Source: Polyangia bacterium
GTDB lineage: Bacteria; Myxococcota_A; Polyangia; Nannocystales; Nannocystaceae
DNA: 64,000 nt
Assembly (NCBI GenBank): GCA_030430565.1
Contig: JAUIKS010000008.1
Location: 111,225-175,224 of the forward strand
Direction: 5' to 3'
Below, piece after piece: positions 13,273-30,665 of the stretch (its first letter is position 1; each line of letters opens with the position of its first letter). Both the position numbers and the translations under genes were made by a program. The notes under the pieces were generated by a model. That model had not been told where the DNA came from, did no database searches, and worked only from the letters and a program-made list of their open reading frames with translations.

Positions 13273-13429
13273 GCGCGCGCCTCGACCTCCAGCACGAGGC
13301 CGCCGCCGCGAGTGCTTCCGCCCCGCGCGGCGTCCTCCCTCACGCGCTCGCGCCGGCGCAGAGCCGCGCGCCGCGGGGGTGAAAATCAACCTGTTTGAGT
13401 GAACATGTCAGTGGCATGATTGAAGGGTC

Positions 13430-16964
<3,535 letters not shown>

Positions 16965-17087
16965 CGACGTCCGCGCTCGCGCGCGCCGCGACGAATCACA
17001 CATGTCTATGAGGTCATGTGTTATCGCGCTCGCGTACCATCCAGGTGTCGTCGTCATCGCGATGGCGCGCGGCGGGAGGTAGCGAAG

Positions 17088-19793
17088 ATGAAGGTCAAGA
17101 CAGACGAGGCGCTCGAGAACTTCTTGGGCGCGCCCGGGGAGGCGTGGTTCACCGGCGCCCGCATCAAGTCCGTGCGCGATCAGCCGCTCACGCCCGGCGG
17201 GCGCACGCGGCTCACGCTCTTCGAACGCGCCGACGCGTCCGGGCGCGCGCACCCGCGGATGCAGCTGAGCACGCCGCCGGCGACGGACCCCGACCCGCGC
17301 GAGCCGCTGCTCGACCCGAGCGTCGAGCTGACCGATCGGGCGAGCTTCACGGCGTGGGTCGAGGGCGCCCTGCGCACGCACGCGCGCTACCTCGCCGGGG
17401 ACGATCTCGCCAGGGGCCACGCGGCGGCCCAGGCCGGCAGCGCGCGCTTCCTCGTCAACAGCGTCCGCGGCCAGCGCGTCGCGGCGCTGTTTCGCGACGC
17501 GCGCGCGCGCCTGAGCGCGCTCGTCGAGCACCGCGGCTGGGACGAGGCCGAGCGCGTCGCCTGCGAGCGCGCGCTCGCGGTCCTCGAGGACGAGTCCTAC
17601 GCCGGCGACCTCGAGTACGACGACAGCGACACCGGCACCTACCACAGCTACGGCAAGGACCACCCCTTCGTCCACTACCTCGAGCGGATCCTCGACGGCC
17701 TGCCGCGCGAGGGGAGCAAGCCCTTCGTCTCGCTCGCGCCGGCGCAGCAGCTCGCGGTCCGCTCCCAGCGCGAGCAGGCGCGCCGCCACCTCGACCACCT
17801 GATGCGTCACAAGTACGCCTACGAGGGCGTGCGCGAGACCGACATCGAGCGCTCGGTCGGCGGCTTCTTGATCGACCGGCGCACGCGGAACATGGTCTCT
17901 GAGACACCTGAGAGCGCGGCCGGGCTCGTGCCCGCCTACGAGCTGCTGCGCGTCAAGCCGGGCGCCGACCGCCCGGACGCCGGCGCCTACCTCTACCGCG
18001 CGGGCGATCAGCTGCGGCGCTGCGAGGACCACCGCCTCGCCGAGGGGCTCTCGGCGGAGCAGCTGCGTCGCATCCCCGTCCCCGACGAGCGCCTCACCTT
18101 CCGGCGCGCGCCCAACGACGAGGCGCTGCGCGCCAACGTCCGCCTCGACTGGGATCGCAACGGCTACGTCCAGCCCGGCAAGATCGGCTGGGTCGGCTGG
18201 GCCGGCCACTGCGACATCAAGGCGATCATGGAGTCCCTCGGGCTCACGCTCCTCGACGCGCCCGAGGTCCACGAGTACCGCGCCGACACCGGCTCGGTCA
18301 CCCGCTTCACGCGCGCGCACCTCATCGAGATGCTCGCCAGCGTCATGGAGCTGGGCTCGGTCTATCAATACGCCGACGGCGGCGGGACGCTCGAGCGCGG
18401 CGTTCACCACTTCGGCGGCTTCCGCAACGACAGCCGCCCCGACCGGATCCAATTCCGCGGCCACGCGCGCGGCAAGCACTTCCGCTGGCCGCTCTCGGGG
18501 CGCCAGGACATCTTCGTCGTCAAGGCGATCGAGACCGCGGAGGGCGAGCGCCTCAACATGGACACGGTGTTCTTCCGCAACCTGCCTGACCTCGAGGCCA
18601 TCGACTTCGCCCCCAACCCCCGCTTCCTCAAGACCGTCGAGGGCGACTACAACCTCATCGACGTGACCGGCCACCTGCTGCACGCGGTCGCCAAGGTCGA
18701 CGAGATCGACGCCGGCGGCTACCCCGTGCAGCGCTCCGAGGCGGTGACGATCGACCTCCGCGCCGACGCCGAGCAGACCCGCTACTTCCTCGGCACGCAC
18801 ATCAAAGACGCCGCGAAGCGCGAGATCTACCGGCTCTACCTCGACCGCGCCGCCGGCTCGATCGTCGCCGAGCTGTTCCGGTGGACCGTCGGCGACGGCG
18901 CCGAGGGCTTCACCGCGACGCCCGTCCCCGGGGAGAACGTCACCATCCCGCTCGCCTCGCCCGTGAGCGCGACGCTGAGCCGCGAGATGAAGCGCGACGA
19001 CCCCTCCGCGTTCCGCAAGCTGCTCGAGCTCGCCACGCGCACAGGGCAGAGCATCTGCACGGACACGGACATGGAGGCCGAGGTCTGGAACGGCGTCGTC
19101 ACCCACATCCAGCTGCGCAAGCGCGGCGCGAACGAGGACGCCGGCGTCGAGCATTGGGAGGTGCACGTCAAGGCGCGCTTCGGCGAGGCCTCGCTCAAGT
19201 ACCTCGTGCGCCGCGACGCGCGCGGCGAGCCGTTCGCGTGGTGCCCGGCGATCGGCGAGGAGACCCGCGGGATGACCATCGACTTCCTCTGGCAGGACTT
19301 CCCCGATGTCGCGAGCAAGGGGATCGAGGACGGCGAGTGGGTCGTCAACAAGACCATGCTCGAGCGCGGCCTCGTCGAGCTGCGAGACGCGCCCCACGAG
19401 GAGGGCGGCTTCTACGTGACCGACGACCACATCAAGAACGTCTTCGAGCTGATCTTCTCGGGGCTCGCCGGCTATCGCCACACCATCGTCCACAACAACA
19501 AGCGCTACGGGTTCAAGGACGAGGCCTCGTGGCGCGAGGCGAAGCGGCGGCTTCGCGCGCTGCGCGACGCGCTCCAATTCGAGGGCCCAGGCGCCGACGA
19601 TCCGTGGCCCGCCTCGACCGCGCCCGAGCCCGAGCCCGAGCCTGCTGACGAAGCCGCTGATCAACCCGCCGATCAACCCGCCGATCAACCCGACGCCGAC
19701 CCCACGAACGAAGCCGAGGCTGACGCCCCAACAGGGGTGCAGGAGCCGGAGACGGGCGCCAGCGAGCCGCCCGAGGGCGCGTCCCCGAGCTGA
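17088..19793 (+). CDS. Large hypothetical protein (~900 aa) with GHC motif and acidic Pro/Glu/Ala/Asp-rich C-terminal tail
   Basis: ATG 17088 preceded by GGAGG. No recognisable domain by eye. Motif GWVGWAGHCDIKA. C-terminal EPEPEPADEAADQPADQPADQPDADP encoded by 12-bp tandem repeat gccgatcaaccc x3. The antisense 1770-aa ORF 14376-19688 is composition junk. Confidence 0.6.
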   Translation: MKVKTDEALENFLGAPGEAWFTGARIKSVRDQPLTPGGRTRLTLFERADASGRAHPRMQLSTPPATDPDPREPLLDPSVELTDRASFTAWVEGALRTHARYLAGDDLARGHAAAQAGSARFLVNSVRGQRVAALFRDARARLSALVEHRGWDEAERVACERALAVLEDESYAGDLEYDDSDTGTYHSYGKDHPFVHYLERILDGLPREGSKPFVSLAPAQQLAVRSQREQARRHLDHLMRHKYAYEGVRETDIERSVGGFLIDRRTRNMVSETPESAAGLVPAYELLRVKPGADRPDAGAYLYRAGDQLRRCEDHRLAEGLSAEQLRRIPVPDERLTFRRAPNDEALRANVRLDWDRNGYVQPGKIGWVGWAGHCDIKAIMESLGLTLLDAPEVHEYRADTGSVTRFTRAHLIEMLASVMELGSVYQYADGGGTLERGVHHFGGFRNDSRPDRIQFRGHARGKHFRWPLSGRQDIFVVKAIETAEGERLNMDTVFFRNLPDLEAIDFAPNPRFLKTVEGDYNLIDVTGHLLHAVAKVDEIDAGGYPVQRSEAVTIDLRADAEQTRYFLGTHIKDAAKREIYRLYLDRAAGSIVAELFRWTVGDGAEGFTATPVPGENVTIPLASPVSATLSREMKRDDPSAFRKLLELATRTGQSICTDTDMEAEVWNGVVTHIQLRKRGANEDAGVEHWEVHVKARFGEASLKYLVRRDARGEPFAWCPAIGEETRGMTIDFLWQDFPDVASKGIEDGEWVVNKTMLERGLVELRDAPHEEGGFYVTDDHIKNVFELIFSGLAGYRHTIVHNNKRYGFKDEASWREAKRRLRALRDALQFEGPGADDPWPASTAPEPEPEPADEAADQPADQPADQPDADPTNEAEADAPTGVQEPETGASEPPEGASPS

Positions 19794-19816
19794 TCAAGCG
19801 CAAAAACCGCCACAAC

Positions 19817-19855
19817 CGACGCGCGCGTCAACGCTCGACGCGCGCGTCGTTTTTG
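19817..19855 (+). terminator. Rho-independent terminator (13-bp perfect stem, 7-nt loop, T5)
   Basis: cgacgcgcgcgtc aacgctc gacgcgcgcgtcg ttttt, 24 nt after the 19793 stop. Confidence 0.7.
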
Positions 19856-20012
19856 CCGCCTGGGGCACAACGCCACAGGTTCAAAAATATCAAACACTTA
19901 CAAACGCAGACCCCGCATTCGACCGGCCGAGCCACGTTCTCCACAAGTTATCCACAGCGAATTTGCAGTGATTTGAAAAACATAAATTTCTTCTTCACAT
20001 CTCCTCCGTACG
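19856..20012. promoter_or_regulatory. AT-rich island (~45-50% GC in a ~70% GC background) in the 615-bp intergenic region upstream of the giant kinase gene
   Basis: ggttcaaaaatatcaaacacttacaaacgcag...aatttgcagtgatttgaaaaacataaatttcttcttcacat; no ORF with protein-like composition. Confidence 0.35.
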
Positions 20013-20408
20013 ACGCCTCCACGACGCCGGCGACGCGCGGAACATGTCCCAAAGACCTACTACGGCGTACATCGGCGCCGACCTCCCGGTGGCCGCGGGT
20101 GGACCTGCGCGGGCGACCGCGCGCTGGCCTCCCGCCCGCCCCCGCGCGCGGCAGATCTGTCCCCTGAGACACAGCTATTCGGAGCCCGCCGACGCGGCGG
20201 CTGGCCTGTGCACATACAACGACCGCCGCCGCGCGCGCGCTGAGGCCGGGCGACGCGATCGCCGGCGCGCCCGCGACCGCGCGAGCGCGCGACCGCCTCG
20301 CCCCGACCGCCCCCGAGCCCGCCGCGGGCCCGCGGGCGATCAGATCCAAATCTGTCCGATAAGACTCCTGAAAACGAGCGCCGAGAGCTCGCCTCGCGCG
20401 TTTTCGCG

Positions 20409-23400
20409 TTGACCCCCGTCGTCGCCCGCGACTCCCGGCGATTTCGCGGCGATGCGATGGGCGATAGACTATCGGCAGGAATGAGCCCGCCTCCTCCCGC
20501 TGCGGGCAGCGCCCCGCCCGATCGACCGGAGCACCCGCAACACATCGGGCACTTCTCCGTGCTGTACACGCTCGGCGAGGGCGGCATGGGCGTGGTCTAC
20601 GCGGCCCGCGACAACAAGCTCGGCCGCAAGGTCGCTATCAAGGTCGTCCACAAGGCGCCGGGTGACGAGTCGCGCGGACGCGCGCGGATGCTCCGCGAGG
20701 CCCAGGCGATGGCTCGCCTCTCGCACCCCAACGTCGTCCAGGTCTACGAGGTCGGGGAGCACGACGGGCAGGTCTACGTCGCCATGGAGTTCGTCAAGGG
20801 GCGAACGCTGCGCGACTGGCAGAACGAGTCGACGCGCTCGTGGAAGGAGATCCTCGAGCGCTACCTCGAGGCCGGGCGCGGGCTCGCGGCGGCCCACAAA
20901 AAAGGCCTCGTGCACTGCGACTTCAAGCCGCACAACGTCCTCGTCGACGACGAGGAGGGCCGCGTGCGGGTCCTCGACTTCGGGCTCGCGCGCACCTACC
21001 ACCAGCAGAGCGTCAACGTGAAGGCGCGCAAGGCCGCGGCGCTCGGCGCCCAGCGTGCCGGCCTCGAGACCCTCGAGACCTCGATGACGGTCTCGGACAC
21101 CGTGACCGGCACGCCCGCGTACATGTCCCCAGAGCAATACCAGGGCCGACGCGCGACGGCCTACAGCGACCAGTTCAGCTTCTGCGTCGCGATCTACGAG
21201 GGGCTCTACGGCGCGCGCCCGTTCTCGGGGCAGAACCCGGCCGCGCTCGCCTTCCAGGTCAGCGCCGGCGAGATCGAGGACCCGCCCCGCGACGCCAAGG
21301 TCCCGAGCTGGCTGCGCCGCGTGATCGTGCGCGGGCTCTCGCCGGATCCCGAGGAGCGCTGGCCGTCGATGGAGGCGCTGATGTCCGCGCTCCAGCGCGA
21401 CGCCGGCGCCGCGCGCCGCTTCCGGGTCCGCATCGAGGGCATCAACATCGAGCGCTTCAAGCTGCTGTCGTCGGCCGGCTACGAGCAGCTCAAGCCGTTC
21501 CGCGACGGGCAGGCGACGGTCGTCTACGCCGGGCTGCGGGCCGAGGACCACAAGCCGGTGCTCGTGAAGCTGCTGCGCAACGAGGCGCCGACGCCCAGCG
21601 AGCTCGCCCGCATGCGCCGCGAGCGGAGCCTGCTCGAGCGCTTCGATGACCCCGGCGTCGTGCGGGCGCTCCGCCTCGAGCACCACGGCCGCGGCCTCGC
21701 GCTCGCGCTCGAGAACTTCGGCGGCACCTCGCTGCGCCAGCGCATCGTCGAGACCGGCGGCCTCACGGTCGACGAGTTCCTGCGCTTCTCGACCAAGCTC
21801 GTCGACGCGCTCGCGGTCGTGCACGCCGAGGGCCTGGTCCACAAGGACATCAGCCCCGAGCACATCCTGTTCCACCGCGCGAGCGGCCGCGTCGCGCTGA
21901 TGGACTTCGACGTCGCCTCGGAGATCTCGGAGGAGGCGCCCTCGGTCGTCGACCCGGACCAGCTCGAGGGCACGCTCGCCTACATGGCGCCGGAGCAGAC
22001 CGGGCGGATGAACCGCAAGGTCGACTACCGCAGCGACTACTACGCGCTCGGCGTGACCTTCTACGAGGCGCTCACCGGGCAGCTGCCCTTCGAGACATCC
22101 CACCCGATGGAGCTGGTGCACGCCCACATCGCGCTCGCGCCGACGCCCCCCAGCGAGGTCTCCGCCAACGTCCCCGAGGCGCTCTCGCGGATCGTGCTGC
22201 GCCTGATGTCGAAGACGGCCGAGGATCGCTACCAGAGCGCCGACGGCCTCCGCCTCGATCTCGAGCGCTGCGCGCGGGAGTGGGACCGCCACGGCTGGAT
22301 CGAGGACTTCGAGCCCGGCGAGCACGACACCACCGACACCTTCCAGATCCCGCAGAAGCTCTACGGGCGCGAGCACAGCGTCAACCTGCTGATGGCGGCC
22401 TTCGAGCGCGCCGCCAGCGGCTCGACCGAGGTCATGCTGATCGCGGGGCCCTCCGGCATCGGCAAGTCGGCCGTGATCCGCGAGGTCCACAAGCCGATCG
22501 TCGCGCGCCGCGGCTACTTCATCTCCGGCAAGTCCGACCCGCTCAGCCGCGACGTGCCGTACACCGCGATCATCCAGGCCTTCCAGGACCTGTTCAAGCA
22601 GCTGCTGCGCGAGTCCGACGAGTCGCTGCAGCGCTGGCGCGACCGCCTGCTCAAGGCGCTCTCGGGGCAGGGGCAGGTGCTGGTCGACGTCGTGCCCGAG
22701 CTCGAGCTCATCATCGGCGCGCAGGCGCCGGTGCCCGGGCTGCCCCCCACCGAGTCCGCGAACCGCTTCCGCTCGCTGTTCAGCAAGCTGGTGCAGGTGT
22801 TCGCGCGCGAGGAGCACCCGCTCGTGCTGTTCCTCGACGATCTGCAGTGGAGCGACCTCGCCGCGCTCAAGCTGATCGAGCAGCTCGCGATCGACAACGA
22901 GCTCGCCAACCTCCTGATCCTCGGCGCCTACCGCGACCACGAGGTCCCGCCCGACCACCTGCTCAACCAGATCGTGCGCGCGATCGAGGAGGCCGGGCGA
23001 GAGATCGCGCGCCACACCCTGCAGCCGCTCGACCTCGAGCACACCGCGGCGCTGGTCCGCGACACGCTCACGCCGACCAAGCGCGACGCCGGCGAGCTCG
23101 TGCGCGTCATCCAGACCAAGACCGAGGGCAACCCCTTCTTCGTCCGCGTGCTGCTCAGCTCGCTCTACGAGCAGGGCGCGCTGCGCTTCGATCGATCCCA
23201 GGGCGGCTGGCTCTGGGATGACGCCGAGCTCGCCAGCGTGCGGCTCAGCGACGACATCGTCGCGCTCATGAGCTCGCGGATCGGCGAGCTCTCGCGGCCG
23301 GCCCGCGACGCGATCGAGCACGCGGCCTGCCTCGGCAACCGCTTCACCTTAGAGCTGCTCTCGATCATCACGGAGCAGCAGCCGCGGATCGTCGTGCGCG

Positions 23401-26400
23401 ACCTGTGGGAGGCGCTCGAGCGCGGCCTGATCCAGGCGCTCGGCGACTCCTACAAGTACGTCGGCGCGTCCTCCGAGGGCTCCTCGACCACGCTCAGCCT
23501 GCCCCACGACATCGAGTACCGCTTCGTCCACGACAAGGTGCAGCACGCCGCCTACTCGCGCCTCGACCCCCGGCGCCGCCAGGAGATCCACCTCCGCGTG
23601 GGCCGCCTGCTGCTCGCGCGCGCCGAGGCGGACGGCGAGGAGCTCGGCGACAAGCTCTTCACCGTCACCGCGCACCTCGCCGCCGCCGCGCCCTTGATCA
23701 ACGCGCCCGACGAGCGCCTCAACCTCGCGCGCCTCAACCTCGCCGCCGGGCGCCGCGCCAAGCTCGCGATCGCGTACCGCTCCGCGGTCAACCACCTGCG
23801 CAGCGGCGTCGACCTGCTGCCCGACGACGCGTGGCGCTCGCAGTACGAGCTGACCTTCGCGCTGCACCGCGAGCTGATGGAGTCGGAGTACCTCGGCGGC
23901 AACGTCGAGGCCGCGCTCGTGCTGTTTCAGCCGCTGGTCGACCGCGCGCGCACGGACCTCGAGCGCGCCGAGGTCTACGAGCTCAAGGTCTCGCTCGAGA
24001 CCTACCGCAAGCAGAACGCGCTCGCGCTCGCGACCGCCTTCGAGGGGCTCGCGCAGCTCGGCGTCCACCTCCCGCAGAGCGCGACCGTGCCGATCGTGCT
24101 GCTCGAGTTCCTGCGCGTGCAGCTCGCCCGCCGCTGGCGCGGCGCCGAGGAGCTGACGGGCTTGCCCGACCTCGACGAGCCGCGCAAGCGGCTGCTGCAG
24201 CGCCTGCTGACGACCGCCGCCCCGGCCGCGTACTTCGTCGACACCAAGCTCGCCGCGCTGATCCTGCTCAAGAGCGCCCGGATCTCGCTGCGAGATGGCT
24301 ATACGGACATGTCCGCCTTCGGCATCGCCGGCTACGGCTTCGTGCTCTCGGGCGTGTTCGGCCGGCACAAAGAGGCCTACGAGTTCGGCAAGCTCGCGCT
24401 GCGGCTCAACGAGCGCTTCAAGAACTCGTGGCTCGACGTGAAGCTGGACTTCCTCGTCGGCCTGTTCATCGCCAACTGGGTCGAGCCGTTCGCGGCCGCG
24501 CGCCGTCGCCTGCACCGCAGCTACCAGCAGGGCATCGGCCAGGGCGACCTCGCCTTCGCGCTCTACAGCGGCGTCATGTACACCAACGTCGCGCTCGTGC
24601 AGGGGCAGACGGTCGACCGGATCTACGGGCTCGCCGAGAGCATGGAGCCCACGGCCCAGCGCGCCGGCGAGATCGACGGCATCGCCATGCTCACGTCGAT
24701 CAAGCGCATGTGCATGGCGCTGCGCGGCCAGACGCTGCAGCCCACGCGCTTCGACACCGTCGACTGGAGCGAGCAGGACTTCGAGCGCGGCCTCGACGAC
24801 AAGACGACGCCGCAGGCGATGTTTTATTACAACCTGCACAAGCTGATCGCGCTGTACCTGTTCGGCGAGTACGAGGCCGCCCGCGCCGTCAGCACCCGCC
24901 TCGAGCAGCGCCTCGAGACCGTGCTCGCGCAGCCGGCGAGCGCGGACTTCGTGTTCTACGACGCGCTCACGGCCGCCGCGCGCTACGGCGCCGCGACGCG
25001 CCGGGATCGCGGCCGGATCCGCGGGGCGCTCGCGCGCGCGACCAAGAAGCTGCAGCGCTGGAGCGGCTTCTGCCCCAACAACTTCGCCGCGCGCCTGCTG
25101 ATCGTCCGCGCGGAGCAGGCCCGCGTGCTCGGCCGCCGCGACACCTTTATCCTCTACAACCAGGCGATCCAGACCGCGCGCACCCACGAGTCGATCATCT
25201 GCGAGGCGCTCGCGCTCGAGCTCACGGCGCGCTACGCCCTGGGCGCGGGCTACGACGTCGCGGTCGAGTCCTACGCGACCGCGGCCTGCGACGCCTACCG
25301 GCGCTGGGGCGCGCGCGCCAAGGTCGAGCAGCTCAGCCACGAATTCGGCGACCACTTCCCGATGTACGCGCTCCCGCCCGCGCTCGAGGAGCCCGAGCCG
25401 GCCGCCTCCGCCTCCGCGACCATGACGAGCACGGCGCAGGACCTCGACCGCGTCAGCCGCACCTTCCAGTCGATCGTCCACGACCTCAACCTCGACGGCC
25501 TGCTGACCAACATGACGCAGACGCTCACGGAGTTCACCGGGGCGCGCCACTGCGTGGTCCTGCTCGAGCGTGACGGCGCGCTCACGGTCGAGGCCGAGGG
25601 CGGGCTGCCGCCGATGTCGGTGCAGCTCGGGCGCGGGCGCGCGCCGGTCGAGTCCGGGATGCTGTGCGAGACGATCGTCAACTACGTCGCCCGGACCCAC
25701 CAGCCGGTGCTGCTCACGAACGCGGCGGAGCTCGGCGACTTCACCGACGACCCCTACATCAAGCGCGGCTCGGTGCGCTCGGTCCTGTGCGCGCCGATGA
25801 TGCTGCGACGCGATGATCTCGTGGGCGTCGTCTACCTCGAGAACGGCCTCACCCCCGACGTGTTCCGGCACGAGCACGTCGCCTCGCTCGCCCAGCTGCT
25901 GCCGCCCGTCGCCGTCGCGATCAGGACCGCGATGCGCGCCAACTCGTATCGACGCTTCGTGCCCCACGCCGCGCTCGAGCGGCTCGCCACGCGGATGCGC
26001 CGCGAGCTGCGACCCGGCGACCACATCAACCTCGAGGGCACCGTGCAGGCGCTCGCGCTGCGGGGCACCGCCGCGCTGGTCGGCGACGGTCGGGGCATGC
26101 GCAGCGCGCTCACGGTCCTCAACCGCTTCTTCGACGCCGCCGCGTCGATCGCCGAGCGCAACGGCGGCTTCATCGGGGAGCGCGCGAGCGACTCGATGAT
26201 CATCTGCTACCCCGGCGGCTCGGGCCCCGCGCTGACGGCCGCGACCGAGCTGCTCGAGGTCGGCCACGAGCTGTTTATCCGCAGCGAGCACGCCAGCAAC
26301 TACGCCGGCGTCGACGTCGGCGTCGCGCTGCACGCCGGCTCCGTGACGATCGGCGCGGTCGGCAGCGACCACGAGCTCTCGCTCGTCACGCTCTCGCGCA

Positions 26401-26708
26401 CGGTCACGATCGCGAAGACGCTCGCGCGCCGCTGCGACAGCTACGGCGCGCCGCTGCTCATCAGCGAGACCGTCCGGGCCCAGCTCCCCGAGACCGGGAA
26501 CCTCGAGATCCGCGCGCTCAACCGCCTCGACCCCGAGGACGGCATGGGCTCCCTCGGGATCTTCGAGGTCTTCTCGGAGCTTCCGAGCGACGCGCGAGGC
26601 GCGTCGGCGGACGACCAGGCGGGGGAGCGCTACGCGGAGCGGCTCGCGGGCGAGCTGCGCGAGACGCTCACGGACTCGCGCGCAGACCTACCCGTCGAGC
26701 GCTCGTGA
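20409..26708 (+). CDS. Giant multidomain signalling protein: Ser/Thr kinase - atypical second kinase-like domain - AAA/STAND P-loop NTPase - long helical (TPR-like) region - GAF - degenerate class III cyclase-homology domain
   Basis: Kinase 1: LGEGGMGVVYAARD, VAIKVV, HCDFKPHNVLV, DFGLAR, GTPAYMSPEQ. Kinase 2: no Gly loop (FRDGQATVVYAG), VHKDISPEHILF, DFDVASEI, GTLAYMAPEQTGRM. P-loop IAGPSGIGKSAV. GAF: GARHCVVLLERDGALTVEAEGG...VLCAPMMLRRDDLVGVVYLENG. CHD-like: ..FIGERASDSMIICYPGG..DVGVALHAGSVTIGAVGS..LSRTVTIAKTLAR..LLISETV. Alternative starts 20457, 20481. Confidence 0.85.
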   Translation: MTPVVARDSRRFRGDAMGDRLSAGMSPPPPAAGSAPPDRPEHPQHIGHFSVLYTLGEGGMGVVYAARDNKLGRKVAIKVVHKAPGDESRGRARMLREAQAMARLSHPNVVQVYEVGEHDGQVYVAMEFVKGRTLRDWQNESTRSWKEILERYLEAGRGLAAAHKKGLVHCDFKPHNVLVDDEEGRVRVLDFGLARTYHQQSVNVKARKAAALGAQRAGLETLETSMTVSDTVTGTPAYMSPEQYQGRRATAYSDQFSFCVAIYEGLYGARPFSGQNPAALAFQVSAGEIEDPPRDAKVPSWLRRVIVRGLSPDPEERWPSMEALMSALQRDAGAARRFRVRIEGINIERFKLLSSAGYEQLKPFRDGQATVVYAGLRAEDHKPVLVKLLRNEAPTPSELARMRRERSLLERFDDPGVVRALRLEHHGRGLALALENFGGTSLRQRIVETGGLTVDEFLRFSTKLVDALAVVHAEGLVHKDISPEHILFHRASGRVALMDFDVASEISEEAPSVVDPDQLEGTLAYMAPEQTGRMNRKVDYRSDYYALGVTFYEALTGQLPFETSHPMELVHAHIALAPTPPSEVSANVPEALSRIVLRLMSKTAEDRYQSADGLRLDLERCAREWDRHGWIEDFEPGEHDTTDTFQIPQKLYGREHSVNLLMAAFERAASGSTEVMLIAGPSGIGKSAVIREVHKPIVARRGYFISGKSDPLSRDVPYTAIIQAFQDLFKQLLRESDESLQRWRDRLLKALSGQGQVLVDVVPELELIIGAQAPVPGLPPTESANRFRSLFSKLVQVFAREEHPLVLFLDDLQWSDLAALKLIEQLAIDNELANLLILGAYRDHEVPPDHLLNQIVRAIEEAGREIARHTLQPLDLEHTAALVRDTLTPTKRDAGELVRVIQTKTEGNPFFVRVLLSSLYEQGALRFDRSQGGWLWDDAELASVRLSDDIVALMSSRIGELSRPARDAIEHAACLGNRFTLELLSIITEQQPRIVVRDLWEALERGLIQALGDSYKYVGASSEGSSTTLSLPHDIEYRFVHDKVQHAAYSRLDPRRRQEIHLRVGRLLLARAEADGEELGDKLFTVTAHLAAAAPLINAPDERLNLARLNLAAGRRAKLAIAYRSAVNHLRSGVDLLPDDAWRSQYELTFALHRELMESEYLGGNVEAALVLFQPLVDRARTDLERAEVYELKVSLETYRKQNALALATAFEGLAQLGVHLPQSATVPIVLLEFLRVQLARRWRGAEELTGLPDLDEPRKRLLQRLLTTAAPAAYFVDTKLAALILLKSARISLRDGYTDMSAFGIAGYGFVLSGVFGRHKEAYEFGKLALRLNERFKNSWLDVKLDFLVGLFIANWVEPFAAARRRLHRSYQQGIGQGDLAFALYSGVMYTNVALVQGQTVDRIYGLAESMEPTAQRAGEIDGIAMLTSIKRMCMALRGQTLQPTRFDTVDWSEQDFERGLDDKTTPQAMFYYNLHKLIALYLFGEYEAARAVSTRLEQRLETVLAQPASADFVFYDALTAAARYGAATRRDRGRIRGALARATKKLQRWSGFCPNNFAARLLIVRAEQARVLGRRDTFILYNQAIQTARTHESIICEALALELTARYALGAGYDVAVESYATAACDAYRRWGARAKVEQLSHEFGDHFPMYALPPALEEPEPAASASATMTSTAQDLDRVSRTFQSIVHDLNLDGLLTNMTQTLTEFTGARHCVVLLERDGALTVEAEGGLPPMSVQLGRGRAPVESGMLCETIVNYVARTHQPVLLTNAAELGDFTDDPYIKRGSVRSVLCAPMMLRRDDLVGVVYLENGLTPDVFRHEHVASLAQLLPPVAVAIRTAMRANSYRRFVPHAALERLATRMRRELRPGDHINLEGTVQALALRGTAALVGDGRGMRSALTVLNRFFDAAASIAERNGGFIGERASDSMIICYPGGSGPALTAATELLEVGHELFIRSEHASNYAGVDVGVALHAGSVTIGAVGSDHELSLVTLSRTVTIAKTLARRCDSYGAPLLISETVRAQLPETGNLEIRALNRLDPEDGMGSLGIFEVFSELPSDARGASADDQAGERYAERLAGELRETLTDSRADLPVERS

Positions 26709-26897
26709 GCGCCGACGCCACCCGCACCGCGGCTCGTCGCCCCCGAATGAGGACGCCGCCCCCCGGCGCGAGGCGCCCGCGCGGCGCGGAGATACGACAT
26801 GCCTTTAAAGACACATATTTGAAACACGCGGACGACGCGATCCGCTGTCCGCCCGCCGATAAAGCCGCTATCCTCGGGCCCTGAGTTGGAGGGTCGA

Positions 26898-29297
26898 ATG
26901 ACGCGTACTACCAGAGGGCGACTCCTTGGAAGCACCTCGCTCGCGCTCGGGCTCGTGGCCGCGCTGGCCGCGAGCGGCTGCAGCGGCGACGACGGCGCGG
27001 AGACCACCGCCGGGAGCGACTCGAGCCCCCAGGGCGAGACGACCGAGGGCCCCGATCCGAGCACCGGCACGAGCAGCGGCGGAACGACCGAGGACGAACC
27101 CGAGGAGACCACCGGCGAACCCGTCGAGTGCACGCCCACCCGCGAGTTCTTCGTCGAGGAGGTCTGGCCGCTGATGGGTCAGGTCTGCATCCAGTGCCAC
27201 GACCCGACGGGCGTCGCGGCCGAGCAGTTCGCCGACTTCCTGCTGCTGCCGCCGATCTACCCCGGCTTCATCGACGCCAACCTCGAGAACATCCGCGCGA
27301 TCCAGGGCTACCAGTACGACGGCGTGCCGCTGCTGCTCGCCAAGCCCGCCGGGCTCACCGACCACGGCGGCGGCGACATCCTCCCCGAGGAGAGCGAGGA
27401 GTACGCGGCCATCGTCGAGCTGCTCGCGCAGCTCGACGATCCGCTGCAGTGCCCGCCCCCGGAGTCCGACGCGAGCTTCGCCGACGTCGACATGCTCGAC
27501 GCCTACGAGACCCTGCGCAAGGCGGCGCTGCACCTCAACGGCCGCCTGCCGACCGAGGAGCAGCTCGGCCTCCTCGAGTTCGGCGGGGGCACCGACGAGG
27601 CGCTCGAGCTCGCGCTCGACTCGCTGCTCGCCGACCCGGCCTTCGAGACGCGGCTCGTCGAGCTGTTCAACGACGTGTTCCTGACGGACCAGTACATCGC
27701 CAACAACTCGGCGAGCCGCGCGGCCCAGAACCTCAACAACACGCAGTGGCCCAACCGCACGCCGTTCGTGCAGAACCAGCTGATGCTGCCGACCGATGAG
27801 CGGCGCCGGATCAACAAGGCGATCGCCCGCGAGCCGCTCGACCTGATCCGCTACATCGTCCGCTACGACCGGCCGTTCACCGAGATCCTGACCGCGACGT
27901 ACATGGTCTTCACGCCCGACACGGCGTGGTTCTACGACGTCGACATCGCCTTCGATAACCCCGACGATCCCGACGAGCTGCAGCCGGGCCTGCTGACCAC
28001 CGCGAACCTGCCCGACGTGCCCTGGCCGCACTCCGGCATCCTCAGCTCGCCGATGTGGCTCAACCGCTTCCCGACGTCGAGCACCAACCGCAACCGCCAC
28101 CGCTCGCGGATGATCTACCAGCACTTCCTGGCGACCAACGTGCTCGAGCTCGCCAGCCAGGCGATCGACCCCGAGGCGGGCTCCTCGATCTTCAACCCGA
28201 CGCGCAACAACCCGGTCTGCGCCAAGTGCCACCGGAGCATGGACCCGATCGCGGGCGCGTTCCAGATGTTCTCAGAGACAGACAACGAGCGCCTGCTCGC
28301 TGAGCCCGCCTGGCACGGGGAGATGTTCAGCCCCGGCTTCGGGACCGAGGAGATGCCGCCGACGGAATTCGCCAACGGTATCCAGTGGCTCGCGCAGCGC
28401 GTCGTCGAGGACCCGCGCTTCTCGCTCTCGATGGTCTTCCACGCCTACAAGGGCCTCACCGGCGCCGACGCGATCAAGTACCCCACCGACCCGGGCCAGC
28501 CGGGCTACGAGGGCCTGCAGATCGCGTGGGAGAACCAAGACGCGTTCTTCCGCAGCGTCGCCTCGGACTTCGAGCTCAGCAACTACAACATCAAGACGAT
28601 CTTCAAGGCGATCGTCATGAGCCCGTACTACCGCGCGCGCGACATGGCGAGCGCGCCCAACGAGGCGCGCGCCTACGAGCTGACGGACGTCGGCACCGCG
28701 CGCCTCTCCACGCCGGAGCTGCTCGCGCGCAAGATCGAGGCGACGGTCGGCGTCACCTGGGATGTCCTCCTGACGGACTACGTGATCCTCTACGGCGGCA
28801 TGGACTCGGACGAGATCACCAACCGCCTCCCCGACGTGAATCACATCATGACGCAGGTCGCGATGCGCATGGCCAACGAGGTCGCGTGCAAGGCGACGGC
28901 CTTCGACTTCACGAAGCCGCAGCCCGAGCGCCTGCTGTTCCCCCACGTCGAGCTCTCGGACACCCCGCTCGTCTCCGAGGACGCGATCAAGCAGAACATC
29001 CAGCACCTCTACGCGCGCCTGCTCGGCGAAGAGCTCGAGCTTGACGACCCCGACATCGAGCGCGCGTTCACGCTGTTCGCGGACACCCAGTTCGAGGGCG
29101 CCCTCAGCGTCGCCAGCGACGAGCCCGAGAGCGAGACCCTCGCGATCATCTCGACCTGCCGCGCGACGAAGGACCCCAACACGGGCGTGGACCTGCCCGA
29201 GGAGCAGCAGATCATCAACGACGGCACCTACACCGTCCGCGCCTGGATGGCCGTGCTCACCTACATGCTGATGGACTACCGGTTCCTGTACGAGTGA
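26898..29297 (+). CDS. Lipoprotein with N-terminal CxxCH (heme-c-type) motif; DUF1592/DUF1549-DUF1553-like family
   Basis: GGAGGG then ATG 26898. Signal LALGLVAALAASGCSGDD. CIQCHDP motif ~30 aa after an acidic Thr/Glu/Gly linker. Large C-terminal helical domain. Paired with a Tat-secreted partner gene 30 nt downstream. Family assignment is inference. Confidence 0.75.
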   Translation: MTRTTRGRLLGSTSLALGLVAALAASGCSGDDGAETTAGSDSSPQGETTEGPDPSTGTSSGGTTEDEPEETTGEPVECTPTREFFVEEVWPLMGQVCIQCHDPTGVAAEQFADFLLLPPIYPGFIDANLENIRAIQGYQYDGVPLLLAKPAGLTDHGGGDILPEESEEYAAIVELLAQLDDPLQCPPPESDASFADVDMLDAYETLRKAALHLNGRLPTEEQLGLLEFGGGTDEALELALDSLLADPAFETRLVELFNDVFLTDQYIANNSASRAAQNLNNTQWPNRTPFVQNQLMLPTDERRRINKAIAREPLDLIRYIVRYDRPFTEILTATYMVFTPDTAWFYDVDIAFDNPDDPDELQPGLLTTANLPDVPWPHSGILSSPMWLNRFPTSSTNRNRHRSRMIYQHFLATNVLELASQAIDPEAGSSIFNPTRNNPVCAKCHRSMDPIAGAFQMFSETDNERLLAEPAWHGEMFSPGFGTEEMPPTEFANGIQWLAQRVVEDPRFSLSMVFHAYKGLTGADAIKYPTDPGQPGYEGLQIAWENQDAFFRSVASDFELSNYNIKTIFKAIVMSPYYRARDMASAPNEARAYELTDVGTARLSTPELLARKIEATVGVTWDVLLTDYVILYGGMDSDEITNRLPDVNHIMTQVAMRMANEVACKATAFDFTKPQPERLLFPHVELSDTPLVSEDAIKQNIQHLYARLLGEELELDDPDIERAFTLFADTQFEGALSVASDEPESETLAIISTCRATKDPNTGVDLPEEQQIINDGTYTVRAWMAVLTYMLMDYRFLYE

Positions 29298-29327: not shown

Positions 29328-30665
29328 ATGGACCGCCGCAAATTTCTCAAGCTCGCCGCGATGACCGGGCTCTCGGTCGTCTCCCCGGTGTTCTCCCGTC
29401 CGGCCCGCGCCGCCGAGACCTACCCCGGCCCGTTCTACGTGCTGATCAGCGCGCGCGGGGCCTGGGACCCGACCTACTACTGTGACCCGAAGACGCCGGG
29501 CGCCTACAACAACGGCATCTACGCGAACCCGGCCACGGCCGGCAACATCGCGTACGCGCCGATCGGGATCACGCAGGCCGGCATCGGGCTCAACGACCCG
29601 ATGTCGATGGGCTTCGTGATGTCGAACCAGGCGTTCTTCAACGCGCACAGCGACAAGCTGCTCGTCGTCAACGGCATCAACATGGAGACGAACAATCATC
29701 TCCGTGGCGTGACGACGATCTGGAGCGGGCGCGGCTCGGAGGGCTACCCCTCGCTGGGCGCGCTGCTCGCCGCCGCCAAGGGTCCCGCGCTGCCGCTCGC
29801 CTTCATCAGCAGCGGGGGCTACGACGCGACCGAGAAGCTCGTGCCCGTCACGCGCCTCAGCAGCGTCACGCCCTTCCGCAAGATCGCGCAGCCGAACCGG
29901 ATCGTCCCGACCGACCCGGAGAACCTCGCGCAGTACCACATGTCCTCGACCTTCGACCGCATCCGCGCCGCGCAGGGCGAGCGCCTGCAGGCCCAGGTCG
30001 ACGACTTCAACCTCCCCGCGCTCCGGCAGTCCGGCAGCGCGCTGTACATGGCCCGCCAGGGCGACGACACGCTCGCCAGCGTGCCGCTGCCCGACACGCT
30101 GATCACGATGCCCACGGAGATGCGCGACCTCCAGCGCATGTGCCAGCAGATCCAGTTCGCGCTCGCGGCCTTCGAGGCCGGCCTCGCCGTCGCCGTCAAC
30201 GTCGAGCTGAGCGGCTTCGACACCCACGGCAACCACGACCGCGACCAGGTGCGCCAGCTCGCCAAGCTGAACTTCGGCATCGACTTCCTCATCGCCGAGG
30301 CCCAGGCCAAGGGCCTCGACGGCGACCTGATCACGATGGTCGGCTCGGACTTCGGGCGCGGCAAGGGCTACAACGGCCCCAACGCGGCCGACGGCAAGGA
30401 TCACTGGCCGGTCGGCAGCGCGATGTTCTTCGGCGCGGGCGTCACCGGCGACCGCGTCGTCGGCGGGACCGACGAGCTCGACCAGCTGCCCCGGCTCATC
30501 GACCCCGCGACCCTCGAGATCACGGACGACGAAGAGGCCGGCGTCGAGCTGAAGTGCGCCGACCTGCACGTCGCGCTGCGCGACTTCACCGGCGTCTCCG
30601 GCAGCGACGAGGCCGGCCGGTACCCGCTGCTCGGCGCCGAGCTCGGGAACCTCTTCACCGGCTGA
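29328..30665 (+). CDS. Tat-secreted DUF1501/DUF1552-like (sulfatase/phosphatase-fold-like) protein
   Basis: MDRRKFLKLAAMTGLSVVSPVFSRPARAAE twin-arginine signal. ...FYVLISARGAWDPTYYCDPK... Gene order directly after the CxxCH lipoprotein, as in known pairs. Confidence 0.75.
   Translation: MDRRKFLKLAAMTGLSVVSPVFSRPARAAETYPGPFYVLISARGAWDPTYYCDPKTPGAYNNGIYANPATAGNIAYAPIGITQAGIGLNDPMSMGFVMSNQAFFNAHSDKLLVVNGINMETNNHLRGVTTIWSGRGSEGYPSLGALLAAAKGPALPLAFISSGGYDATEKLVPVTRLSSVTPFRKIAQPNRIVPTDPENLAQYHMSSTFDRIRAAQGERLQAQVDDFNLPALRQSGSALYMARQGDDTLASVPLPDTLITMPTEMRDLQRMCQQIQFALAAFEAGLAVAVNVELSGFDTHGNHDRDQVRQLAKLNFGIDFLIAEAQAKGLDGDLITMVGSDFGRGKGYNGPNAADGKDHWPVGSAMFFGAGVTGDRVVGGTDELDQLPRLIDPATLEITDDEEAGVELKCADLHVALRDFTGVSGSDEAGRYPLLGAELGNLFTG

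Follow-up and report, generated by a model that had tools for sequence, protein, structure and literature searches.

A single unbroken open reading frame (ORF) occupies positions 20409..26708 on the plus strand of the window, the whole stretch of 64,000 nucleotides that was analysed. It contains 2099 codons counted from TTG 20409, and all residue numbers given here count from this TTG. GC3 is 0.97 over the whole ORF. Every 300-nt segment from ~20560 to 26708 has a value of 0.94-1.00 without a change of frame, including the junction of the two kinase domains (K1 and K2) at 21350-21430. The first-pass annotation had described one uninterrupted 6.3-kb ORF with uniform codon usage; both points are borne out, and the ORF is one real gene. 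Translation most likely starts at ATG 20481 (ORF residue 25), giving a protein of 2075 aa, because the 89%-identical orthologue P0275 begins exactly there and the alignment with the orthologue P0002 begins there too. The NCBI call, P0001, places the start further downstream at GTG 20559. A terminator-like hairpin lies 3′ of the upstream gene, so that the gene studied here probably forms its own transcription unit with an upstream region of ~630 nt. No Rfam families were found in 19700-20600. The neighbouring genes are of housekeeping type (signalling and DUF1501/DUF1588), their order is syntenic between genomes, and no defence island or mobile elements were seen among them. The features are as follows.

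19817..19849, plus strand: terminator-like hairpin (13-bp stem with 11 G-C pairs, then TTTTTG)
20481..26708, plus strand: probable coding sequence (2075 aa and stop; GC3 in one frame, alignment to P0275 and P0002)
20526..21413, plus strand: K1, canonical Hanks Ser/Thr kinase, residues 40-335 (Pfam Pkinase, motifs, PDB relatives)
21414..21470, plus strand: K1-K2 linker, residues 336-354, RVRIEGINIERFK..., in frame, strongly conserved in the orthologues
21471..22283, plus strand: K2, the family's native kinase domain, degenerate, residues 355-625 (Pfam, motif comparison)
22326..23438, plus strand: NOD, AAA_16/STAND P-loop NTPase, residues 640-1010 (Pfam, Walker motifs, AF2/Foldseek)
22446-22469, plus strand: Walker A of the NOD, G680PSGIGKS
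22821-22841, plus strand: Walker B of the NOD, L805VLFLDD
23436..25388, plus strand: helical array (HEL), all-alpha and TPR-like, residues 1010-1660 (phmmer, AF2)
25446..25958, plus strand: GAF domain, residues 1680-1850 (Pfam)
25953..26618, plus strand: predicted pseudo-cyclase, ‘RFVP’ linker and class III cyclase-homology fold, residues 1849-2070 (alignments, profiles, AF2)
26619..26705, plus strand: acidic C-terminal tail, residues 2071-2099, poorly conserved

From the sequence, the module order is confirmed as K1 - K2 - AAA_16/STAND NTPase - ~650-aa helical array - GAF - cyclase-homology domain (CHD), and Pfam, profile and fold evidence agree with the six-module order proposed earlier. Pfam found Pkinase twice in the ORF (residues 51-324 and ~366-610), AAA_16 and GAF, and gave no match for the CHD. 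No transmembrane segment was found in the protein.

K1 is a canonical kinase, as had been proposed. As an isolated segment it matches Pfam Pkinase with an E-value of 8.3e-46, and its motifs are complete: G56-x-G-x-x-G, K78 (VAIK), E97, H-C-D171-F-K173-P-H-N176, D190-F-G and S-P-E242. Between DFG and SPE lie 50 aa, an unusually long activation segment. The closest PDB sequences are PknB, StkP and PknA (E 7e-37), and more than 579 Myxococcota kinase loci match the K1 motifs. K2 had been called kinase-like, which fits a Pkinase match (E 1.3e-35) with degenerate motifs. In a comparison with 74 family kinases, the Gly-rich loop is absent from K2, where the site reads R-D-G-Q-A-T. In the catalytic loop, S482 stands in place of the Lys and H485 in place of the Asn, and DFG has become D499-F-D. 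On the other hand, K387, E405, H-K-D480 and APE are retained. With the beta3 Lys, alphaC Glu, catalytic Asp and DFG Asp kept and the domain as a whole under strong purifying selection, K2 could have atypical activity.

The STAND assignment of the P-loop module holds, and the module is intact. AAA_16 matches residues 650-837 with an E-value of 9.5e-41, both Walker motifs are present, and helical and winged-helix-like subdomains follow Walker B. The AF2 model of the NOD (pLDDT 86) has 6mfv (STAND-TPR), Apaf-1, Cdc6/Orc1, MalT, CED-4 and plant NLRs as its top Foldseek matches. The helical array that follows is conserved family-wide and matches more than 200 relatives in phmmer. AF2 shows its first part, to residue 1250, as helical. 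Its match to Pfam TPR_CHK1 is weak (E 7e-5, below the Pfam cut-off), and no solved structure related to it by sequence was found. GAF matches residues 1694-1838 above the cut-off (E 6.9e-13).

The STAND fold, which resembles Apaf-1, NLRs and MalT, also raises the idea of an anti-phage or conflict system in which an Avs/NLR-like sensor acts through a kinase effector, much as tandem kinases pair with NLRs in plants but on a single chain. Plant tandem kinases signal via NLRs (10.1101/2024.08.30.610185), which provides a precedent, and the kinase domains match PADLOC kinase models such as PD-T4-6, mad6 and MkoA. However, these PADLOC/NCBIfam matches reflect generic kinase similarity far below the family cut-offs, the neighbourhood is of the housekeeping type described above, and the family is one of mainstream signalling that extends to cyanobacteria and fungi. 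We consider a defence role highly improbable.

Within a large, already known family, the gene represents a rare variant. About 70 of the 120 matches listed begin with K2-NOD-HEL-GAF, as do at least 111 of the best 149 cluster representatives; judged by these relatives, the kinase domain native to the family is K2. The core thus defined falls by sequence within a very large modular family, among whose members are the cyanobacterial HstK-type ‘dual kinases’ and fungal Chk1, Mak2 and Mak3. In this family a variable output module sits after GAF. The first-pass annotation had stated that the core is known with a histidine-kinase or no output. This does not stand, since the K2-AAA_16-helical-GAF core carries HK, sigma54-AAA+, SpoIIE/PP2C, GGDEF/EAL, STAS, a C-terminal Hanks kinase or a PF00211 cyclase. 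The usual position of the output after GAF counts against K1 as the output.

K1 is an addition to this core. In an NJ tree of NOD and HEL, the protein clusters with P0002 and P0003, and the tree together with the K1 motif matches places the gain of K1 in the ancestor of a small Myxococcota clade. Three orthologues have the same K1-K2 fusion. P0275 (~89% identity, syntenic locus L083) and P0002 (56% identity, two independent assemblies) both have the order K1-K2-NOD-HEL-GAF-CHD-like. That an assembly or sequencing error joined a kinase gene to an adjacent K2-STAND gene is next to impossible. No support for an artefact was found, apart from single-kinase relatives being far commoner. The frame and GC3 are continuous over 21350-21470, the linker, its frame unchanged, shares 95% identity with P0275 and 89% with P0002, and the fusion occurs in four independent assemblies (the window, GCA_020633295.1, GCA_030429545.1 and Logan ERR3428548). 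The check for a fusion artefact near 21350-21430 was thus negative.

Several known systems share parts of this architecture. A cyanobacterial class of HstK-type ‘dual protein kinases’ has been described (PMC1262709). Such proteins, named ‘trifunctional serine/threonine-protein kinase/ATP-binding protein/sensor histidine kinase’ by NCBI (e.g. P0006, P0041, P0089), are collinear over K2, AAA_16 NOD, ~650-aa helical array and GAF, with 35-53% identity over ~850-1300 residues; the nearest single-kinase relative is P0125 (53%). Their C-terminus is HisKA/HATPase, in some cases accompanied by PAS or REC, whereas the protein studied here ends in an apparently dead cyclase fold and carries the extra canonical kinase at its front. 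Fungal group X hybrid histidine kinases (C. albicans Chk1p, S. pombe Mak2/Mak3) have the same S_TKc-like, AAA_16, GAF core (PMC9069115). A fungal protein, P0088, is among the family matches, and the weak TPR_CHK1 match falls in the helical array. These eukaryotic kinases carry long N-terminal extensions and an HK-REC output, and lack a second kinase and a cyclase fold. The TOMM system kinase/cyclase fusion protein (TIGR03903) combines kinase, cyclase and AAA_16/TPR modules and is the second-best NCBIfam match. The match scores 264, below the cut-off of 705.75; the order of that protein differs, with the cyclase before the NTPase, and no TOMM genes lie near the gene. Other likenesses are analogies only, the architectures not being homologous. 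Animal receptor guanylyl cyclase GC-A couples a pseudokinase to a cyclase fold, and plant tandem kinase-pseudokinases are coupled to a STAND NTPase. In the present protein not only a kinase but also the cyclase appears dead, and all modules are on one bacterial polypeptide.

The K2-AAA_16-GAF-PF00211 members (P0026, P0062, P0132 and others; JGI ‘predicted ATPase/class 3 adenylate cyclase’) share the core, the ‘RFVP’ linker and the ‘D[IL]R.FT’ CHD subtype. They have a single N-terminal kinase and retain both metal Asp, Asn, Arg and the KGK/KGR loop. The combination had been called unusual. It is a rare variant, but the same six-module order (Pkinase x2 - AAA_16 - GAF - Guanylate_cyc) already exists in the metagenomic proteins P0127 and P0152 (2111 and 2119 aa), which come from two unrelated clusters. 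Their N-terminal kinase is of a different subtype, and their core, at 38-39% identity, is no closer than the generic family. The CHD of P0127 is intact and belongs to another, class IIIa-like subtype whose linker is HNOBA-like; that of P0152, read by eye, looks degenerate too. This architecture looks like an independent, convergent fusion.

The homology of the C-terminal region to class III cyclases is real. The last ~240 aa gave no Pfam match even at E<=10, but BLASTP matched them to the PF00211 domain of P0026 (E 1e-15), the best eight matches in a PDB sequence search (phmmer) are all class III cyclases, and a search of 5.8 billion proteins returned only PF00211 matches. A profile of 20 canonical family CHDs scores 98.5 bits (E 3.5e-30). 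The AF2 model has a pLDDT of 79, its input alignment holding true cyclases and thus a bias towards the cyclase fold. The top 50 Foldseek/PDB matches to this model are exclusively class III cyclases (E 2e-14 to 1.6e-10), including the GC-A intracellular domain 9bcs. In the alignment, hydrophobic core residues and Gly positions are conserved. Metal Asp2 is retained (D1928), and the substrate-specifying positions are E1924 and V1993. In contrast, metal Asp1 is A1883, the transition-state Asn is T2000 and the Arg is T2004; ‘GD’ has become ‘SR’ and the KGK/KGR loop DGMG. Each of the 16 CHDs from family members with a single kinase keeps both Asp, Asn and Arg, which is not so in this protein, P0145/P0275 or P0002. 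The loss of catalytic residues differs among the orthologues, P0002 retaining both metal Asp. The domain is accordingly classed, on these residues, as a putative pseudo-cyclase. The proposed class III cyclase output is thus supported as to fold and not supported as to cyclase function.

Selection differs between the modules: dN/dS is 0.11 for K1, 0.17 for K2 and GAF, 0.24 for HEL, 0.39 for NOD and 0.60 for the CHD. The CHD shares 29% identity with that of P0002, versus 56-69% for the N-terminal modules. The CHD is the least constrained and fastest-diverging module. With Asp1, Asn and Arg replaced, the domain below Pfam detection and its evolution nearly neutral, cNMP synthesis is unlikely. The earlier count of four nucleotide-binding modules is not supported either, since K2 lacks the Gly-rich loop, the Lys and Asn of the catalytic loop and the Gly of DFG, and the CHD half its site; only K1 and the P-loop module look fully competent.

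It is quite improbable that all four modules are active and that GAF, STAND and both kinases control a CHD which works as a cyclase output. The fold and Asp2 are kept, the Glu at a substrate-specifying position resembles guanylyl cyclase Cya2, and intact cyclases occur on relatives with the same core (~10% of the closest cluster representatives carry one; among the best 149, at least 16 have a CHD with a strong family-profile match). However, besides the substitutions and rapid divergence, residues are missing from both halves of the site, which cannot be complemented in a homodimer. Class III cyclases are obligate dimers, and asymmetric heterodimers are known. The degenerate CHD might act in trans by forming a heterodimer with an intact CHD protein from another locus, in the manner of mammalian C1/C2 or sGC alpha/beta, and regulate or complete that enzyme. 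Structures of sGC and tmAC are among the fold matches, and P0002 could provide a ‘C1-like’ half. Against this, no second CHD is encoded in the 64-kb window, neither complete half is available from a domain lacking Asp1, Asn and Arg, and rapid divergence speaks against a conserved partner interface; we regard action in trans as improbable.

Alternatively, the C-terminal domain may be a functionless, decaying remnant, the protein working as a K1-K2-STAND-helical-(GAF) kinase like P0003. P0003, of the same clade, stops after the helical array; it and P0072 lack GAF and CHD. The CHD has the highest dN/dS, and the C-terminal tail is unconserved (45% identity to P0275, missing in P0002, low pLDDT). 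Yet three lineages, as little as 56% identical overall, retain the full-length fold uninterrupted by stops or frameshifts, core positions of the domain are conserved, and its dN/dS remains below 1 (p ~0.02, a rough two-proportion estimate from the dN/dS values), which suggests that the CHD retains some function. A mere remnant thus seems unlikely.

The explanation that we favour, with moderate confidence, is a soluble cytoplasmic signalling protein of Myxococcota (Polyangia/‘Myxococcales’) with a STAND switch, K1 as live output and K2 and the dead CHD as scaffolds. The output slot of this lineage is filled by a family-type class III cyclase domain, since stripped of catalytic residues and now weakly constrained. 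A canonical Hanks kinase of the type expanded in Nannocystales/Polyangia has joined the N-terminus before K2, and K2 has degenerated. In the proposed mechanism, GAF and the helical array may sense a ligand or protein signal, which would drive a nucleotide-dependent STAND switch from an ADP-bound closed state to an ATP-bound oligomer. The oligomer would gather K1 domains for trans-autophosphorylation on their long Thr/Ser-rich activation segment and then for substrate phosphorylation, with K2 and the dead CHD presumably serving as allosteric or dimerisation scaffolds and producing no cAMP or cGMP. The core has experimental support from C. albicans Chk1, whose S_TKc/AAA_16 and GAF modules are required for function and modulate it (PMC9069115).

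The target gene is a single open reading frame, 20409..26708 (+), of 2099 codons counted from TTG, and its translation contains no internal stop. At a window G+C of about 70%, spurious long reading frames are common, and several of them overlap the target on both strands. Codon-position composition was therefore checked. In the target frame, GC1, GC2 and GC3 are 0.71, 0.45 and 0.97, and GC3 stays at 0.94-1.00 across all 300-nt windows from about 20560 to 26708, including the suspected junction (21309-21608). The gene is real and occupies one reading frame throughout, as the first-pass annotation had described it. The same annotation feared a fusion of two adjacent genes by sequencing or assembly error near 21350-21430. 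Such an artefact is ruled out by the continuous frame and GC3 profile and by four independent assemblies. GenBank already lists the gene under the name 'protein kinase' (P0275, MCB9752595.1), and it is unstudied. The TTG at 20409, from which all residues are numbered here, is probably not the true start. P0275, an orthologue with 89% identity, begins at a methionine equivalent to the ATG at 20481, the alignment with the more distant orthologue P0002 begins there too, and the first ATG, at 20457, is followed by two rare codons. A start at ATG 20481 would yield a protein of 2075 amino acids. A strong hairpin follows the upstream gene, so that transcription of the target probably starts from a promoter region of its own:

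19817-19849, terminator-like hairpin, 3′ of the upstream gene

No Rfam match was found in the long upstream region.

The modules of the protein were assigned with Pfam and by structure searches. Pfam annotation recovered two Pkinase matches (residues 51-324 and approximately 366-610), AAA_16 and GAF, but returned no Guanylate_cyc match for the C-terminal tail, either in the full protein at E ≤ 1 or in the isolated 279 residues at E ≤ 10, where nothing at all was matched. The N-terminal kinase (K1), searched as a separate segment, scores 156.9 bits against PF00069 (cut-off 31.7) and has every Hanks motif: G56xGxxG, K78, E97, HCD171-F-K173-PH-N176, D190FG and SPE242. By its sequence it qualifies as a Hanks-type Ser/Thr kinase, whose sole unusual trait is a 50-residue activation segment. 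This segment runs from DFG to SPE (20976-21134, +), compared with 28 residues in the second kinase (K2), and carries a basic, Ala-rich insert; the inserts at this place in P0002 and in the clade relative P0003 are also long, but non-homologous. K2 has a kinase fold as well (123.5 bits against PF00069, cut-off 31.7), and PknB is the nearest solved structure for both kinases (E 3e-33 for K2 in the PDB search). The full catalytic motif set is absent from K2: RDGQAT stands in place of the Gly-rich loop, in the catalytic loop, HKDISPEH, S482 replaces Lys and H485 replaces Asn, and the DFG motif is DFD. Retained are the beta3 Lys K387, the alphaC Glu E405, the catalytic Asp D480, D499 and APE. In the target, P0002 and P0003 alike, K1 is canonical and the K2 behind it degenerate; the K2 motif state of P0002 is as in the target, and that of P0003 is further degenerated.

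Downstream of the kinases, the STAND P-loop proposed from the sequence was borne out. AAA_16 matches residues 650-837 (E 9.5e-41, 140.5 bits, cut-off 32.6), and both Walker A (GPSGIGKS at 680) and Walker B (LVLFLDD at 805) are intact. A PDB sequence search with this AAA_16/STAND module (NOD) and the helical array gave no match at E ≤ 0.01, and a fold search was used instead. Residues 640-1250 were modelled with AF2 (pLDDT 86). The best Foldseek match of the model is 6mfv (E 3.5e-8), a crystallised STAND protein whose sensor is a TPR; Apaf-1, Cdc6/Orc1, MalT, CED-4 and plant NLRs come next. The low TM-scores (0.25-0.43) are what a multi-domain model would be expected to give. The modelled likeness to these proteins supports the STAND label. 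On family behaviour alone, the NOD would be expected to act as a nucleotide-dependent oligomerisation switch. The helical stretch of about 650 amino acids contains a CHK1-like TPR match below the Pfam threshold, and GAF (PF01590) covers residues 1694-1838 (E 6.9e-13, 49.7 bits, cut-off 22.4). No hydrophobic segment reaches transmembrane values, so the protein is predicted to be cytoplasmic.

Because Pfam was silent on the tail, the proposed cyclase-homology domain (CHD) was examined by BLASTP, phmmer against the PDB, a protein-database search, a custom profile, and AF2 with Foldseek. BLASTP aligned 217 residues of the tail with P0026, a single-kinase family member with a Pfam Guanylate_cyc tail, at E 1e-15. 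In the PDB, eight of nine phmmer matches, the best eight, are class III cyclases, with Cya2 (2w01) at the top (E 1.1e-3). A search of 5.8 billion proteins returned four, all of them PF00211 adenylate cyclases (best E 2.9e-9); absence from this word-indexed search is weak evidence, as it missed the tail-containing P0001 (the NCBI call of the target) and P0002. Searches of this kind may index the C-terminal ends of very long proteins poorly. A profile of 20 canonical CHDs covered the whole domain with 98.5 bits (E 3.5e-30). The AF2 model of the tail (pLDDT 79), whose input alignment included real cyclases, gave class III cyclases as all top 50 Foldseek/PDB matches (E 2e-14 to 1.6e-10). By fold and ancestry, the tail is thus a CHD, and this part of the first-pass claim stands. 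Pfam likewise finds only GAF, and no PF00211, in the orthologue P0145.

Cyclase function is a different matter, as the catalytic residues are replaced. The first metal-binding Asp is A1883 in the target and Ser in P0145/P0275, whereas the second is retained as D1928; P0002 has both. The VNxASR motif reads VT2000-I-A-K-T2004, with T2000 for the transition-state Asn and T2004 for the Arg; these positions are Thr and Ala in P0145/P0275 and Ser and Ala in P0002. In addition, the 'GD' preceding the Asn is SR and the KGK/KGR loop is DGMG. All four catalytic residues (both metal Asp, Asn and Arg) are kept in 20 of 20 comparators, namely 16 single-kinase family CHDs and four stand-alone cyclases. Substrate-specifying pairs of class III cyclases are K/D or K/T for ATP and E/C or E/G for GTP. 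In the target the pair is E1924 and V1993, of which the Glu is guanylate-cyclase-like and the Val fits no known pair. Active sites of class III cyclases form across the dimer; because residues are missing on both sides, a homodimer would not be able to compensate. Residual or trans-complemented cyclase activity is an unlikely alternative reading. The retained second metal Asp speaks for residual activity; against a partner in trans, a CHD profile search found no other CHD in the 64-kb window. From the residues present, we conclude that the tail is a pseudo-cyclase. To call this CHD fold a cyclase in an annotation would be wrong; conversely, Pfam overlooks the domain entirely.

To place the protein in its family, residues 1-1200 were searched exhaustively against 1.84 billion cluster representatives. 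At E ≤ 1e-30, 227,739 proteins were found, a count that takes in every kinase and AAA_16 protein. The collinear K2-NOD-helical-GAF order, or the covered part of it, is present in all 149 top representatives, and a full-length search gave about 70 proteins with E 1e-180 to 1e-280 at 70% query coverage. These alignments show a very large family built on a conserved K2-NOD-helical-GAF core. What follows GAF differs among the best matches: HisKA/HATPase (with or without PAS and REC), sigma54 AAA+ with HTH_8, SpoIIE, GGDEF/EAL, STAS, a C-terminal Hanks kinase or a cyclase. The earlier statement that this architecture is known with histidine-kinase or no output was therefore too narrow. The CHD profile matches 19 of the 149 best representatives (P0125-P0273, P0003 apart) at E ≤ 1e-3, 16 of them strongly. 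Pfam finds neither HisKA nor HATPase_c in the target, which has the CHD fold in that place. A histidine kinase forms the C-terminal end of P0125, the nearest single-kinase relative (53% identity, Nannocystis-type). In P0164 and P0265 a Hanks kinase follows GAF (K2-AAA_16-GAF-kinase), and thus an extra kinase is possible at either end of the core.

K2 is the kinase native to the family and K1 is the added module, in line with the proposal that a canonical Hanks kinase had been prepended. A genome-collection scan found the best-conserved K1 peptides, MLREAQAM and HPNVVQVY, at 579 or more kinase loci in Nannocystales, Polyangia and other Myxococcota. Their wide distribution indicates that K1 was recruited from the local kinase expansion. 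Myxobacterial genomes are known for Ser/Thr-kinase repertoires that are very large and shuffled. The scan was keyed on K1 motifs, returned mostly unrelated Myxococcota kinases and did not include the window's own genome among its species representatives; within it, the full architecture is found at the P0002 locus (L003) only. In a neighbour-joining tree of NOD and helical array, the target, P0002 and P0003, which stops after the helical array, form one clade. The deep branches are star-like; the target CHD may or may not share its ancestor with the CHDs of P0026 and P0062, another single-kinase member with a working cyclase tail. All six modules were found in the following orthologues:

Proteins with the six-module order of the target
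P0001, the window's own protein, NCBI call
P0275 and its fragment P0145, approximately 89% identical, Myxococcales MAG HK-STAS-MYXO-17, annotated 'protein kinase'
P0002, 56% identical, Polyangia MAG, also in a Logan assembly

The combination had been called unusual. The six-module order is indeed rare, but recurrent, since Pfam also finds two Pkinase domains, AAA_16, GAF and PF00211 in the metagenomic clusters P0127 and P0152. Unlike the target, these have an N-terminal kinase of another subtype, and their core is no nearer to it than the family at large, so that their order looks like an independent fusion. The CHD of P0127 is intact and class IIIa-like, with an HNOBA-like linker. The P0152 CHD (residues approximately 1940-2119) gives a partial Pfam match (E 1.9e-11), and the canonical metal and transition-state residues are apparently missing when the sequence is read by eye. 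An extra kinase may thus have become combined with a decayed cyclase on two occasions, in the target lineage and in P0152. The target differs from the TOMM kinase/cyclase fusion TIGR03903, scoring 264 bits, under the equivalog cut-off of 705.75.

Constraint on the individual modules was estimated by codon comparison with the syntenic orthologue at the P0275 locus (L083).

dN/dS per module
K1, 0.11
K2, 0.17
GAF, 0.17
Helical array, 0.24
NOD, 0.39
CHD, 0.60

K1, with the lowest ratio, is the most constrained module. On these values, K2 is clearly functional even though its motifs are degenerate. In K1, K2 and NOD the target is 64-69% identical to P0002; the figure drops to 40% for GAF and to 29% for the CHD. 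As an alternative, the CHD might be a pure remnant; judged from the codon comparison, it is the least constrained module, yet not collapsed.

The target lies between the following features, in a locus with which L083 is syntenic:

Features flanking the target, and counterparts of the downstream pair
13424-16964 (+), FIST/FIST_C protein and PAS-HisKA-HATPase-REC(-REC) hybrid kinase, ends overlapping, upstream
17016-19793 (+), 925-aa ORF without Pfam or PADLOC match, upstream
26886-29297 (+), PSCyt3/DUF1588- or PSD-like protein, downstream
29328-30665 (+), DUF1501 protein, downstream
30752-34885 (-), major-vault-protein (MVP)-like gene, 1377 aa, downstream on the opposite strand
L001 6615-9689 (-), PSD/DUF1501 pair in the genome of the distant orthologue
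L083 16375-20169 (+), PSD/DUF1501 pair

The FIST and hybrid kinase genes are conserved as a pair in L083 and are likely to form a separate two-component module. The 925-aa ORF, which separates the target from the hybrid histidine kinase, has high GC3; at its position L083 has no called gene and a gap of about 940 nt. The MVP-like protein matches Pfam MVP_shoulder (E 9.4e-28) and, weakly, Vault_3, and an MVP_shoulder gene occupies the syntenic position in L083. The PSD/DUF1501 pair adjoins the target gene in three of three genomes. The pair of the distant orthologue is only 22-30% identical to that of the window and lies in the opposite orientation; the pairs are thus probably paralogous and were not taken as functional linkage, and the association may be chance. 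A defence role was considered as a further alternative and rejected: the PADLOC and NCBIfam matches reflect generic kinase similarity, and PADLOC gave none for the neighbours.

By analogy with STAND proteins, we propose that signal perception would lie with the C-terminal helical array and GAF, which would free the NOD for nucleotide exchange and oligomerisation, and that the resulting proximity would switch on the N-terminal effector. K1, by sequence the only fully competent effector, could undergo trans-autophosphorylation of its long Thr/Ser-rich activation segment, with K2 as an allosteric partner. The dead CHD, a naturally dimerising fold, would serve as a dimerisation or regulatory module. 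In C. albicans, genetic work on Chk1 shows that function depends on, and is modulated by, the S_TKc/AAA_16 and GAF modules of the homologous core (PMC9069115). The literature searched contained no study of a bacterial family member with a cyclase tail, and nothing directly applicable was found on PknK/MalT-type kinases and inactive bacterial CHDs.

Nothing here overturns current views. The target is a variant within a known, highly modular family, of moderate interest chiefly for pseudoenzyme and domain-rewiring questions. A more far-reaching reading, which we regard as improbable, is that an output swap is under way, in which a STAND ATPase with a dead cyclase output was rescued by an active Hanks kinase fused at the far end, leaving pseudokinase and pseudocyclase as regulatory scaffolds. 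If true, bacteria would here have a one-chain equivalent of tandem kinase-pseudokinase and NLR modules, which could show how pseudoenzymes come to be recruited in bacterial signalling. On this reading, the unrelated P0152, where an additional N-terminal kinase also accompanies a CHD that looks degenerate, would be a case of convergence and not of coincidence. If the proposed mechanism holds, the protein would be a compact natural case of a pseudokinase and a pseudocyclase flanking a STAND switch, with the live output moved to a newly fused kinase, and would be useful for the rewiring of modular bacterial signalling proteins and for pseudoenzyme biology.
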